Of a DNA stretch of 28,017 nt, positions 2,084-9,896 are shown one piece after another. This DNA is from a virus. Under the pieces are notes generated by a model. The model searched no databases and was not told the DNA's origin. It was given only the letters and a program-made list of their open reading frames with translations. Made by a program: the position numbers and the translations under genes. Every line of letters begins with the position of its first letter. The first letter of the stretch is position 1. Location of the stretch: UHGV virus genome UHGV-0120697; one strand, given 5' to 3'.

Positions 2084-2506
2084 ATGAAAACAAACACGTC
2101 AGATTTCACAATAACTATTTCAAAAAATGACCAAGCATTAATTGATAACCTGAAATACCTTGCGGAAAAACATAATAACGGACGAATTGCAATTAATTTA
2201 CGACACATCACAGGAGTAACAATTGTAACCAGTTACTGGCATCTATATCTAATCGCTAAATCAGTACTTGAAAACAAAGATTCTGTTGTCAATGGAAGAG
2301 ATATAGATACTCTTCCTGCACAAATCAAACCGATAGCCTATCAATTGCGTAATCGTTTTAAAAATGAAGGTGGGATTATATTTGACTTTCCCGCAGCTGT
2401 AGCCGTGAGCTTCTCTCGGGAGGATATACTTCACTCATTTCGTTTTGCTCTATCAGGTGACGAGACATTATGGCAGCTAGAAGATGCCGGGAGCAGCCCG
2501 GCATAA
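2084..2506 (+). CDS. Hypothetical protein in an AT-rich island (moron candidate)
   Basis: Track ORF trimmed to the internal ATG at 2084 because 1841-2083 overlaps the preceding gene in another frame. Visibly lower GC than the flanks. No recognisable domain. Confidence 0.45.
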   Translation: MKTNTSDFTITISKNDQALIDNLKYLAEKHNNGRIAINLRHITGVTIVTSYWHLYLIAKSVLENKDSVVNGRDIDTLPAQIKPIAYQLRNRFKNEGGIIFDFPAAVAVSFSREDILHSFRFALSGDETLWQLEDAGSSPA

Positions 2507-2512
2507 ATCAAA

Positions 2513-2704
2513 TTAAAAATCAACCAGTTGTGTGACAGGTGGGTATTTACGCTGAATTTTGTCAGTTACTAACGCCAGTAATATATGAATCTCTGTGTTT
2601 AATGCGTCTTTATCACCCGTCGTTTTTACCCTGGGAGGGTTAATGTTATCCAGAGCAGCACTAAGTTCACTCAACAAATTAACAACTTTTTTATCTTCTG
2701 ACAT
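2513..2704 (-). CDS. Hypothetical small protein (63 aa), convergent with 2084-2506
   Basis: ATG with an AAGAGG RBS on the minus strand; AT-rich putative promoter region 2705-2840 upstream. Confidence 0.4.
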   Translation of the reverse strand: MSEDKKVVNLLSELSAALDNINPPRVKTTGDKDALNTEIHILLALVTDKIQRKYPPVTQLVDF

Positions 2705-3501: not shown

Positions 3502-3744
3502 ATGGGCAAAGAATATAAAACTCTCATTAACAAAGCACTTGAGCGTTTTTATTTTCGCTTAAGTGCATCAGGCGTTCATGCTGAACGTGCAGCCCGTGAC
3601 TCATTGACCAGGGCAATCCGGAGTCTGTATGACGTGGCTTTTTACGCTGATGATCTGGATGCACTTAACGAACTTTCCGAGCTGATCTGTGCCGCAGAAT
3701 GCGGGGAACATATTGAACCGTATAAGCTGGGGAATATTGCATGA
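3502..3744 (+). CDS. Hypothetical early protein
   Basis: ATG at 3502 after a GTG at 3499; tightly packed with neighbours. Confidence 0.5.
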   Translation: MGKEYKTLINKALERFYFRLSASGVHAERAARDSLTRAIRSLYDVAFYADDLDALNELSELICAAECGEHIEPYKLGNIA

Positions 3745-3854
3745 GTATATTTATCTCATGGCTTGTTCTGATTATTTCAGTGGTCTGCGCAATTGGCATT
3801 GTGCGAATTATTCATTCAGTAAAAAAGATTGAGCGTTTTTTCACTGAAGAATAA
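3741..3854 (+). CDS. 37-aa single-pass membrane micropeptide (MSIFISWLVLIISVVCAIGIVRIIHSVKKIERFFTEE)
   Basis: Not in the ORF track (below its size cut-off). ATG overlaps the upstream stop (ATGA coupling); a hydrophobic stretch of about 20 residues followed by a charged tail. Confidence 0.4.
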   Translation: MSIFISWLVLIISVVCAIGIVRIIHSVKKIERFFTEE

Positions 3855-3944
3855 CAGCACAAATAAAACACACGATTAAATAAGAAAACATGAAAACAAT
3901 CCGCACTCGCGGAGGGCTTTGTACATTCAAATAAGGCGGCAACG

Positions 3945-5000: not shown

Positions 5001-5204
5001 ATGAACAACAAGACATGGTTTCGTGCATATGCATGGGCGCTGGTATGCGTCCTCGTCTCTCTCATTCTGTATGTAGGGGTACTCCCCCGAATGATTTCAT
5101 CAGACAGCTCCTTCCTGGTATTGTTGGGCATTTTCATTGCCATGCTGTACCCGGCAGGCGTTGTTCGCCTTTTCAGTAAGTACATCAAGGAAATTAAACA
5201 ATGA
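5001..5204 (+). CDS. Small membrane protein, two predicted TM helices (67 aa)
   Basis: Internal ATG at 5001 with an AAGGG RBS after the previous stop; two hydrophobic segments; ATGA-coupled to the downstream SPFH gene. Confidence 0.5.
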   Translation: MNNKTWFRAYAWALVCVLVSLILYVGVLPRMISSDSSFLVLLGIFIAMLYPAGVVRLFSKYIKEIKQ

Positions 5205-6031
5205 AGAAATTCAGACTCTTTCAGATTCTCCCGCTTTTTGCCGCCATCCTGCTGGTTGGCTGCGATCGCGTTGAGCCAGGTAATATGGGCATCAAAGTCA
5301 ACAAGCTGGGCGACGACAAAGGCGTTGGCGAAGTGGTTGGCGTTGGTCGCTACTGGACTGGCTGGAATACCGAGGTTTACATCTTCCCGACCTTCAAACA
5401 AATGAAGACCTACGATGAGCCGTTCAGCTTTCAGATGAGTGACGGCACAACCATCGGCTATCACATCGGCGTGGCCTACAAAGTTGATCCATCCAAAGTT
5501 ACCACGGTGTTTCAGACCTACCGCAAAGGCGTGGACGACATTACCGACACTGACCTGCGCCAGAAGATCGCCGATGCACTCAACCGACTGGCCAGCAAAA
5601 TGACCACCGATAAGTTTATCGACGGTGGTAAGTCTGAACTGCTGGATTCAGCACTTAAAGATATTCAGGAAGAGATGACCCCCATCGGTATTCAGGTCAT
5701 GAGCCTCTCTTATGTCGGTAAACCGGAATATCCGCCAACCGTTATCGACAGCATTAACGCCAAAGTCACGGCAAACCAGAAAACCCTGCAACGTGAACAG
5801 GAAGTCAAGCAACGCGAAGCTGAAGCCAACATGCTGCGCGCAGAAGCTGCCGGACAAGCCGATGCCATTCGCACAAAAGCCCAGGCTGAAGCCGACGCCA
5901 TTCGTTTACGCGGCGAAGCTCTGCGCCAGAATCCCGGCGTTATGGAGCTGGAAGCGATTAACAAATGGAACGGCACGCTACCGCAATACATGACCAGTAA
6001 CACCGCTGTTCCGTTTGTTCCGGTGAAGTAA
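5201..6031 (+). CDS. SPFH/band-7 (HflK/C-, prohibitin-like) domain lipoprotein
   Basis: Signal peptide with lipobox LLVGC; SPFH-like core followed by an Ala/Glu/Gln/Arg-rich coiled coil (EAEANMLRAEAAGQADAIRTKAQAEADAIRLRGEA) and a WNGTLP tail typical of band-7 proteins. Confidence 0.7.
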   Translation: MKKFRLFQILPLFAAILLVGCDRVEPGNMGIKVNKLGDDKGVGEVVGVGRYWTGWNTEVYIFPTFKQMKTYDEPFSFQMSDGTTIGYHIGVAYKVDPSKVTTVFQTYRKGVDDITDTDLRQKIADALNRLASKMTTDKFIDGGKSELLDSALKDIQEEMTPIGIQVMSLSYVGKPEYPPTVIDSINAKVTANQKTLQREQEVKQREAEANMLRAEAAGQADAIRTKAQAEADAIRLRGEALRQNPGVMELEAINKWNGTLPQYMTSNTAVPFVPVK

Positions 6032-7073: not shown

Positions 7074-9896
7074 ATGACGGCAGAGTACATCAGGGACTGG
7101 CAACAACCGCGCCACGCAGTAGGACGTGAAGGAACGGAGATCCCCGCACCTGAATCCGCACTTTCCTCCTGGCTGGATGCCTACCGGGCAGAGAACGAAC
7201 GCCGCCAGGAAATGGCTGATGCGGCGTTCTCCGCCACACCGCTGGGCAACCTGATTAATAAAAGCCTGGACGCACAGGAAAAACAGGACAAAACCATCAC
7301 ACTGGCAGGAGACGCCAGAAAACGGGCACGCGGCGCGGTGGATGAAGCCATGGCCTCGCTGCGCCTGCTGCCGTCCTATCTGCGCGATCCGCTTATTCGC
7401 CACCTCTCCTTCCTGCGCAAAAAACAGGAAGCCGATCGCCGGAAAGGCAAAAAGAGCTGGCAGGCGGAACGCTATGCACGCGGAACCCTGCGCAAAATAT
7501 TCGAACGTCTGGATCGCACTGACAGACGCTGGCTGACACCGGGTTATCGCTCCCTTGCCGGACGCGAACGCCTGGACGATTTGCTTTACCTGCCGCAGCT
7601 CAACAAACACCAGATACAGACGCTGGCCACCATGACGGCGGCGATGTTCAGCAGCACCTTCGAAAAACTCTGCGATGGCTTTGGCGCGACTGATGGCGAA
7701 CTGACCATGGATGTAACGCTGAAGGCGTATCAGATGCTGGCCCGCATGGCGTTACACCTGCACGCCATGCCTCCACATTATGACGCACTGACAACAGACA
7801 AAGACCGGAGGAACGAACCGGACACGGAGCTGCTGCCGGGCGCAATCCTCCGCCTGACCTGTGCGGAATGGTGGAAACGCAAACTGTGGCTGTTACGTTG
7901 CGAGTGGAGAGAAGAACAACTCCGCGCCGCCTGTCTGGTTTCCAGAAAAACATCGCCCTATCTGAGCCAGGACGCGTTAAGCGAGTTTCGCGCACAGCGC
8001 GAGAAAACACGCGATTTCCTGAAAAGTTTCATGCTGGAAAATGAAGACGGGTTCACGATTGATCTCGAGACGGTGTATTACGCGGGAGTAAGTAACCCGG
8101 TTCACCGTAAGGCAGAAATGATGGCCACCATGAAGGGACTGGAACTTCTGGCCGAAGCCCGTAGCGACAGAGCGGTGTTTCTGACCGTCACCTGCCCGTC
8201 AAAATACCACGCAACAACGGAGAACGGTCATCCGAACCCCAAATGGAACGGGGCCACCATGCGCGACTCCAGCGATTACCTGGTTAACACGTTTTTTGCG
8301 GCAGTCCGCAAAAAACTGAACCGCGACGGCCTGCGCTGGTATGGCATCCGCACGGTGGAGCCTCACCATGACGGCACCGTGCACTGGCATATGATGGTCT
8401 TTGCTCATCCGGAAGAAATCGACAGCATCGTGGCCATCACCCGCGATATTGCCATTCAGGAAGATCGTCACGAACTGGGCGATGATATTACTCCGCGCTT
8501 TAAGGCGGAGTATGTCGACGGCTCAAAAGGCACACCAACCAGCTATATCGCGACCTACATCGGAAAAAACCTGGACAGCCGCGCCGTAGATGGCATCGAC
8601 CCGAAAACGGGCAAGCCACGCGTTGACCACGAAACCGGAAAATCAATGGCCGAGAGCGTGGAGCGCGCCATTGGCTGGGCGCGTCTTCATCGGGTCCGCC
8701 AGTTCCAGTTCTTTGGCATCCCCTCCCGTCAGGTATGGCGTGAACTCCGCCGCCTTGCCAGCCAGATGGCACGCAACCCGGAAGGCCCGCAACGGCTGAA
8801 GGATGATGCAATGGATGCGGTACTCGCTGCCGCTGATGCCGGGTGTTTTGCCTCCTACATTGAAAAACAGGGTGGCGTGCTTGTTCCACGCAAGGACTAC
8901 CTGATTCGCACCGCCTACGACCTCGCAGATGAGCTGAACGATTACGGCGAACAGAGCGTACAGATTTACGGGATCTGGTCACCACTCATCGGGGAATCCT
9001 CCCGTGTGTGCACGCATCCGGATAACTGGAAGTTGGTAAGACGTAAACCAGAACCAGAAGACAACGCCCGCGAAAATGGTTTTGACCTTCAGGGCGGCCA
9101 TGCCGCCCCTTGGACTCGTGGCAATAACTGTCCCCGTGTACAGGAAACGGACAACAACGGGACAGAACAGCCGGAAGAACGGCCAGCACCGTGGCCGCAG
9201 CTTCCTGACGGCGTTGACGTGAACGAATGGATGCGCTCACTGAAACGGCACGAACGCCGGGCGCTGATGCGTTCGCTTCGTGACAAACAGGCAAAAAACA
9301 GCAGTGATGAAATGCAGAGCTGGACACAGAGCCGCAAACAGCAGCGGCCTTTGCCTGATAACCACGAATTACTCGCTAAAGAATGGCGGGAATCTGCCGA
9401 ATCTCTCGGCCTGCATATCGGTGAACAGCAGATGCAGCACCTGTTACGGGGCGGCAGTCTGTACGTTGACGGCAGCATCATTGCACCGCAGGGATTTGAA
9501 ATTGTACGCAAACCGGATACCCGACCGGACAGCCGGATCACGCAGCTCTGGCAGCGCCTGAGCCGTAACCACGGCGTAAGCAGTACGGAGATCCGCCATA
9601 ACCCGGTCGCCAGCTATCTGGAACAGCTGAGGGCATCAGACCCCGAAGCCGCCGCACGCCTGGCATCCACACTTCAGCAAGACCAGAACACCATGAAAAC
9701 ACCCGTTACCGTGCTTTCTGACATGCTGCGCGCCATCCGCGACGCAGAGCACGCACAGAGAATCAGTGAAACCACTGAACGCGCCCGCCGCAAAGCAGAC
9801 CTGCTGCGGGGTGGCCTGACCAGTGGAAACAAAAAACAGACAGAAACGGGATTCACAAATCCCGTAAATGAGCAAAAAACGCGCCGCGATATATGA
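7074..9896 (+). CDS. A: Rolling-circle replication initiator, gpA family (HUH endonuclease)
   Basis: HUH motif (TVHWHMMVFAH) and paired active-site tyrosines (TSYIATYIGKN); position after the early operon as in P2. 940 aa, longer than P2 gpA (about 760 aa), with a C-terminal extension. Confidence 0.9.
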   Translation: MTAEYIRDWQQPRHAVGREGTEIPAPESALSSWLDAYRAENERRQEMADAAFSATPLGNLINKSLDAQEKQDKTITLAGDARKRARGAVDEAMASLRLLPSYLRDPLIRHLSFLRKKQEADRRKGKKSWQAERYARGTLRKIFERLDRTDRRWLTPGYRSLAGRERLDDLLYLPQLNKHQIQTLATMTAAMFSSTFEKLCDGFGATDGELTMDVTLKAYQMLARMALHLHAMPPHYDALTTDKDRRNEPDTELLPGAILRLTCAEWWKRKLWLLRCEWREEQLRAACLVSRKTSPYLSQDALSEFRAQREKTRDFLKSFMLENEDGFTIDLETVYYAGVSNPVHRKAEMMATMKGLELLAEARSDRAVFLTVTCPSKYHATTENGHPNPKWNGATMRDSSDYLVNTFFAAVRKKLNRDGLRWYGIRTVEPHHDGTVHWHMMVFAHPEEIDSIVAITRDIAIQEDRHELGDDITPRFKAEYVDGSKGTPTSYIATYIGKNLDSRAVDGIDPKTGKPRVDHETGKSMAESVERAIGWARLHRVRQFQFFGIPSRQVWRELRRLASQMARNPEGPQRLKDDAMDAVLAAADAGCFASYIEKQGGVLVPRKDYLIRTAYDLADELNDYGEQSVQIYGIWSPLIGESSRVCTHPDNWKLVRRKPEPEDNARENGFDLQGGHAAPWTRGNNCPRVQETDNNGTEQPEERPAPWPQLPDGVDVNEWMRSLKRHERRALMRSLRDKQAKNSSDEMQSWTQSRKQQRPLPDNHELLAKEWRESAESLGLHIGEQQMQHLLRGGSLYVDGSIIAPQGFEIVRKPDTRPDSRITQLWQRLSRNHGVSSTEIRHNPVASYLEQLRASDPEAAARLASTLQQDQNTMKTPVTVLSDMLRAIRDAEHAQRISETTERARRKADLLRGGLTSGNKKQTETGFTNPVNEQKTRRDI
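9846..9865. promoter_or_regulatory. 20-bp palindrome ACGGGATT-CACA-AATCCCGT (copy 1, inside the 3' end of A)
   Basis: Perfect 8-bp inverted arms; an identical-arm copy lies 73 bp downstream. Confidence 0.5.

Follow-up and report, generated by a model that had tools for sequence, protein, structure and literature searches.

A 37-residue single-helix membrane peptide gene coupled to a DUF4754 gene in the early operon of P88-like prophages

Is a 37-codon reading frame that begins inside the stop codon of a prophage early gene a real gene, and what could a peptide of this size do for the phage? We examined this question for an ORF in a 28,017-nucleotide stretch of viral DNA (UHGV-0120697), called here, in its full length, the window. 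The ORF runs from an ATG at 3741 to a TAA at 3854 (3741..3854, plus strand) and encodes MSIFISWLVLIISVVCAIGIVRIIHSVKKIERFFTEE. It follows a gene for an 80-aa protein (3502..3744, plus strand) that matches the Pfam family DUF4754 (PF15946, E = 7.6e-54) and is annotated as such in RefSeq. As read in the preliminary description, the start of the peptide ORF overlaps the upstream stop, the ATG of the peptide and the TGA of DUF4754 sharing the four nucleotides ATGA (3741..3744, plus strand). This translational coupling junction is present in 85 of 85 close loci and in all of the lineages A to D described below, which supports the proposed coupling to the upstream early gene. A Shine-Dalgarno-like GGGGA (3729..3733, plus strand) lies 7 nt 5' of the peptide ATG. 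The anti-Shine-Dalgarno duplex energy at the peptide start is -5.5 kcal/mol in lineage A and -7.6, -8.5 and -7.9 kcal/mol in lineages B, C and D, against a mean of -2.1 kcal/mol for all ATGs of the window, 15% of which reach -5 or lower. The Shine-Dalgarno sequence, placed 6-9 nt 5' of the start in lineages A-D, is kept in all four although the overlapping C-terminal residues of DUF4754 differ in each.

The window corresponds to a P2-family prophage whose closest named phages are the P88-like Xuanwuvirus, and over the kilobase tested it is 100% identical to Escherichia coli DA33135 (NZ_CP029576). The integrase (50-1057) and the C-type repressor (1112-1507) are encoded on the minus strand, cox (1558-2079) is followed by a run of small plus-strand genes, and replication endonuclease A is found at 7074-9896, with the late genes further on. 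The peptide ORF sits between cox and A, in the early (Pe) operon as annotated for P2 and 186. In P88-like phages the promoter-proximal block has the order cox, DUF4761, a hypothetical gene, DUF4754 and the peptide, and then a hairpin. Relative to P88, the window carries a two-gene insertion between cox and DUF4761 (2084-2768), composed of a 140-aa ORF (2084-2506, plus strand), a convergent 63-aa ORF (2513-2704, minus strand) and a hairpin with a 14-bp stem (2737-2768). The insertion resembles a moron-type cassette that breaks up the early operon, and may influence whether Pe transcription reaches the DUF4761-DUF4754-peptide block. The same operon also holds a second coupled membrane pair on the plus strand, with a 4-nt overlap: a 67-aa protein with two hydrophobic segments (5001-5204; phrog_1130, "membrane protein", host-takeover category) and a 276-aa SPFH-domain lipoprotein (5201-6031; phrog_200). 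The arrangement of this pair recalls NfeD/SPFH pairs, and it is absent from lineages C and D.

The ORF had been described as unannotated, which is incorrect for the public records, where it is a CDS in RefSeq, in phage P88 and in vB_EcoM-569R5. The RefSeq entry WP_074517553.1 ("hypothetical protein") is 100% identical to the window peptide, and gp07 of P88 ("membrane protein", YP_009113050.1) is the same gene, 92% identical and in the same position after DUF4754. The ORF is named "putative membrane protein" in vB_EcoM-569R5, and a member of its UniRef cluster is named "Prophage membrane protein"; the names in the P88, RefSeq and UniRef records are automatic and give no function. The window peptide is recorded, without a change, on 139 contigs. 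A 154-nt region around the ORF occurs in 1,376 of 5,426 complete E. coli genomes (about 25%), including ST131, O157:H7 and O111 strains, and a CDS is annotated under all the matches listed; O104:H4 strains matched a wider 1-kb query. With a natural 45-aa variant of the peptide as query, a word-indexed search across 5.8 billion proteins returned 64 clusters, all with Escherichia names, and the window peptide's own cluster also has members labelled Salmonella, Shigella and multispecies Enterobacteriaceae. Searched exhaustively with an HMM, 1.84 billion representatives gave 17 hits, all of the same peptide family. The family does not extend beyond Escherichia and its close relatives, which indicates a shallow evolutionary depth. 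One 226-kb contig labelled Vagococcus sp. WN89Y, a Gram-positive (NZ_JBQPOM010000071.1, our locus L004), carries an E. coli-type DUF4754 gene (96% identical) with an intact peptide and hairpin, and is most likely a contaminated or mislabelled assembly. No model in Pfam, PHROGs, NCBIfam or PADLOC came up to its cut-off for the peptide or close to it, Pfam giving only noise below its cut-offs, and the peptide had no relative among PDB sequences; the PADLOC defence models matched neither the peptide nor DUF4754 nor DUF4761. Literature searches on the accession, DUF4754, the peptide sequence and 186 fil/dhr found nothing. The gene call is sound and already in the databases, and its product belongs to a familiar class, the small phage membrane proteins.

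Since automated pipelines call many spurious small ORFs, and this one is short and belongs to no known family, we considered that it could have arisen by chance or been over-annotated, and have no function. The composition of the product argues against this. Its Kyte-Doolittle 19-residue maximum (2.93) is the highest among the 197 ATG-ORFs of at least 30 aa on both strands of the window, and none of the 2,549 ORFs of 30-60 aa obtained from 20 shuffles of the window reaches 2.9. Hydrophobicity, conserved columns and the helix model together place a transmembrane segment at residues 3-24 (IFISWLVLIISVVCAIGIVRII; 3747..3812, plus strand), and AlphaFold2, run with a 19-sequence alignment, modelled one continuous helix over residues 2-35 with a mean pLDDT of 86. 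The hydrophobic helix noticed at first reading is thus borne out by both the hydropathy ranking and the structural model.

The conservation of the ORF points in the same direction. We retrieved 85 close loci (lineage A) through the neighbouring DUF4754 gene; a scan of genome contigs with DUF4754, mostly by pattern matches, gave at least two loci. The best 80 matches of an alignment-based viral scan were the same close relatives, and the deeper lineages came from a look-up of encoding contigs. The peptide ORF is open from the same ATGA junction in 85 of 85 loci, with a length of 37 aa in most and 45 aa in six, so that the check proposed earlier, conservation against frame disruption in relatives, came out in favour of the gene both here and in all four lineages. 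The only disrupted copies are decayed ones: in the prophage-derived record of phage 503458 (L087, NC_049341) the peptide and DUF4754 are both frameshifted, and in E. coli O111:H- 110512 (L088) only the first 7 codons of the peptide are left, joined through a deletion to a truncated replication endonuclease gene.

Among 70 distinct sequences, variable sites at codon positions 1, 2 and 3 number 11/35, 4/36 and 16/36 in the peptide ORF and 17/81, 10/81 and 45/80 in DUF4754, compared with 52/90 in the downstream spacer. The pN/pS ratio, calculated from summed pairwise Nei-Gojobori estimates, is 0.31 (residues 2-27) or 0.22 (residues 2-32) in the annotated frame of the peptide and about 0.94-1.5 in the off-frames of the same region in lineage A. 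DUF4754 has a ratio of 0.06, and selection on the peptide is thus weaker within this lineage. The pS of the peptide (0.13-0.15) equals that of DUF4754 (0.12), which indicates that the pattern is not plain nucleotide conservation. Three divergent lineages, B (L086, P0065), C (L090, P0066) and D (L094, P0069), carry an 80-aa DUF4754-type gene, the ATGA overlap and then a 41-aa peptide. Between lineages A-D the identity is 51-62% for the peptide, 28-61% for DUF4754 and 61-75% for the DNA, and the pN/pS of the peptide is 0.34-0.50, against 0.74-2.6 in the off-frames. Purifying selection specific to the annotated frame, the hydrophobicity unmatched among shuffled small ORFs, and the start, Shine-Dalgarno sequence and overlap kept in four lineages, with an intact ORF in every close locus, leave the chance-ORF explanation with a negligible probability, and for practical purposes we regard it as excluded. 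The ORF very probably encodes a real, translated membrane micropeptide. The initial proposal of a genuine single-TM micropeptide gene is supported by the hydrophobicity, the single modelled helix and the frame-specific selection.

The residues conserved in all lineages are S6, W7, [S/A]13-xxx-A17-x-G19, R/K22, I23, I24, K28, I30, E31, F34, T35 and G36. The juxtamembrane segment and cytoplasmic tail comprise residues 22-37 (3804..3851, plus strand), delimited by conserved columns and tail charge, and the tail motif of the deep lineages is [RK]-I-I-x-x-[VIL]-K-x-I-E-x-[FL]-F-T-G-[DE]; the window copy has E and not G at position 36. The small-residue face and the interfacial Trp are typical, in our reading, of helix-helix packing surfaces. 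The net charge is +1 to +3 in the tail and 0 in the N-terminal flank. According to the positive-inside rule, membrane topology can be predicted from the charge of the flanks, and the net positive tail together with the uncharged N-terminus predicts an N-out/C-in topology. The "charged tail" of the preliminary description holds insofar as positive charge is present; the charge is weak (net +1) and evolutionarily labile in lineage A.

The tail codons contain two homopolymer runs, A6 (3821-3826) and T6 (3836-3841; both within 3821..3841, plus strand), which are natural indel sites. Indels in these runs in lineage A shift the last 5-10 codons to another open frame and give the 45-aa peptides, whose tails read ...KRLNAFSLANN... 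or ...FSLVNNDTNKTSN and which account for 6 of the 85 loci (about 7%). In the isolated phage Chuche and in an E. fergusonii copy the peptide stops after residue 30. The tail is not essential to the peptide, and these indels and truncations define the TM helix plus the juxtamembrane R-I-I-x-x-V-K-K as the core unit. The A run also forms, at 3821-3827 (plus strand), the heptamer A_AAA_AAG, a dnaX-type -1 slippery sequence in the correct zero frame (GTA AAA AAG), and a -1 shift there would yield a 30-aa product ending in ...KKD, with a stop at 3832. We rejected programmed -1 frameshifting because the heptamer is absent from lineages B-D, and it is probably incidental.

Downstream of the peptide gene, 45 nt 3' of its stop codon, an RNA hairpin of the form TCCGC-N4-GCGGA followed by GG(G) (3900..3916, plus strand) marks the 3' border of the module. 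The hairpin is kept in 85 of 86 loci, including all four lineages (at about 1660 in L086 and about 4158 in L090 and L094), with a variable loop and a poorly conserved surrounding spacer. A compensatory stem, TCCGT/ACGGA (C:G to U:A), otherwise perfect, is found in 14 loci, and 6 further loci have G.U pairs that are valid on the plus strand RNA only; these loci are not independent, and the changes therefore represent few separate evolutionary events. At least four alternative downstream gene modules start directly after the hairpin. The annotated P2 terminator after gene B (a hairpin followed by GGGGCTTCTTTTT) and the terminator tR1 of 186 after dhr occupy the same operon position and are partly similar in sequence. 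The P88-type hairpin has no strong U-tract and a folding z of about -1.7; it may be a weak attenuator of the tR1 kind, or else serve in processing or stability.

The position of this hairpin raises the question of whether translation itself, and not its product, is what matters. In that case the ORF would serve to hold ribosomes on the interval of about 200 nt that separates DUF4754 from the following gene, and their presence would either block Rho-dependent polarity or, as with a leader peptide or attenuator, control the hairpin. A conserved hairpin 45 nt 3' of the stop at the module border is consistent with such a function, as are the terminators of 186 and P2 at the equivalent place, which the 186 record calls anti-terminated, and the tolerance of the ORF 3' end to frameshifts, which is expected if only the passage of ribosomes mattered. 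However, the amino acid sequence is under purifying selection in the correct frame alone, both within and between lineages, and what is kept (51-62% identity, versus 61-75% for the DNA) is an extremely hydrophobic helix with S6, W7, A17, G19 and R/K22. Judging from the size of the ribosome footprint, moreover, a ribosome terminating 45 nt away would not reach far enough to cover the hairpin. We consider it very unlikely that translation alone explains the conservation of the ORF.

A product-based alternative is a membrane-damaging toxin of type I-like character, or a holin/antiholin-like peptide timing lysis, which would form oligomers in the inner membrane that dissipate the proton-motive force, with no specific partner. 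The size, the very hydrophobic single helix and the short polar tail resemble toxins of the Hok, TisB, Ibs and Ldr class and minimal holins (PMC12648545), and the small-xxx-small face could equally serve self-association. The peptide is indeed, like type I toxins, a small hydrophobic single helix (37 aa, 19-residue maximum 2.93), but its gene is a translationally coupled member of an operon and not a toxin locus standing by itself. Rfam gave no antisense or sRNA match at the locus. Lineages C and D have lost the sole antisense promoter-like site (3799-3771), and shuffled sequence contains promoter-like sites at least as often as the peptide region does. No match to toxin or holin families was found in Pfam or NCBIfam, and no holin-family homology in PHROG or Pfam. 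Given the lack of an Rfam match and the non-conserved antisense promoter-like site, a type I toxin-antitoxin arrangement is not supported. A depolarising toxin on the earliest transcript would also be expected to hurt phage replication. The suggestion that the peptide acts as a holin-like regulator is disfavoured too, since the holin/antiholin (phrog_126), endolysin (phrog_465) and spanins are encoded at about 20.1-21.6 kb in the late region, 16.5 kb from the peptide gene, which makes such a role unlikely. Taken together, a toxin or lysis-timing peptide appears improbable.

The known genes closest in position are those of phage 186. There fil (cell division inhibitor) and dhr (host replication inhibitor), which overlap each other, are the last two genes before tR1, and the peptide gene likewise ends the promoter-proximal part of a P2-family early lytic operon before a hairpin. 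Fil (75 aa) and Dhr (66 aa) are also small non-essential products, but unlike the peptide they have no strongly hydrophobic TM segment (19-residue maxima of 1.26 and 0.49, against 2.93). Homology of the peptide region to 186 Fil, 186 Dhr and P2 Orf78 was looked for by sequence comparison and none was found. The peptide segment IVRIIHSVKK (window 3798-3827) does show a ten-residue similarity to residues 59-68 of Fil, IIRIVHFVIK, which is not significant (E = 0.044 against five sequences, with composition correction off), and the H25 of this stretch is not conserved across the peptide family.

Several small single-pass membrane proteins of phages or bacteria, among them SidA of Caulobacter and Gp56 of SPO1, inhibit the divisome or the synthesis of the envelope. 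The early small membrane protein Gp11 of the staphylococcal phage PhiNM1 blocks division through MurG and DivIC (PMC11237401). Like the reading that we favour for the peptide, these are early- or stress-expressed bitopic proteins that bind membrane proteins with no catalysis; they differ from it in having other hosts and unrelated sequences. The AcrZ, MgrB, MgtS, KdpF and CydX class of E. coli similarly consists of proteins of less than 50 aa with a single TM segment that modulate larger membrane proteins (PMC12648545), whereas the peptide is phage-borne, operon-coupled to a soluble 80-aa protein and shows no homology to them. Inhibition of a host protein, in cell division or transport, as suggested in the preliminary description, is a reasonable analogy, for which the one local support is the matching place of fil and dhr in the operon of 186; that any specific target class, such as the divisome, is the right one we consider doubtful.

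The soluble partner was modelled by AlphaFold2 as a generic three-helix bundle (residues 4-23, 25-48 and 52-66; pLDDT 89) with a disordered C-terminus of 14 residues, and a fold search of this model against PDB and viral models gave no significant match (best E = 0.24). We see about an even chance that the peptide works together with DUF4754; their co-occurrence could stem from tight linkage and not from joint function. A more elaborate scheme, which we judge unlikely, would join DUF4754 and the peptide in a two-component, membrane-tethered host-takeover device specific to P88-like phages, with a tR1-like hairpin. The TM helix would dock on a protein of the host's inner membrane, such as a bitopic component of the divisome or the FtsH/HflKC system, and the docked peptide would recruit or activate the soluble three-helix DUF4754; the hairpin would serve as a tR1-like attenuator, so that the immediate-early transcript would end with the peptide gene. 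If this were true, the pair would be the functional counterpart of 186 Fil/Dhr.

Considering all of these data, we lean, by a modest degree, towards a host-modulating, bitopic inner-membrane micropeptide that is coupled to DUF4754 and acts in early lytic growth. Conservation of a specific helix face, the location on the earliest lytic transcript and the linkage to DUF4754 in every lineage make a membrane-inserted modulator the best supported reading. Termination and reinitiation at the ATGA overlap would bring ribosomes to the peptide gene, helped by its own Shine-Dalgarno sequence, and both features suggest that the peptide and DUF4754 are made together. The peptide would be inserted as a single TM helix (residues about 3-24), with a periplasmic N-terminus and a short amphipathic tail in the cytoplasm. 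Because a single helix of 37 residues has no catalytic capacity, it would act by helix-helix packing with a membrane protein, probably one of the host, and the likely contact surface would consist of the conserved Trp at the interface, together with the small-residue face [S/A]13-xxx-A17-x-G19. The juxtamembrane segment may tether the soluble DUF4754 or cooperate with it. In early lytic growth the peptide would thereby serve a non-essential function in host takeover or host modulation.

So far the peptide adds no new principle. Its shortness, its spread through E. coli, the selection on it and the ready candidate partner recommend it as a good, inexpensive target for experiments. The small phage membrane proteins form a large class, most of it uncharacterised, in which several members have proved to be precise inhibitors of essential envelope processes, and the selection acting on this peptide and its fixed genetic partner make it a tractable candidate for a new host-targeting micropeptide.
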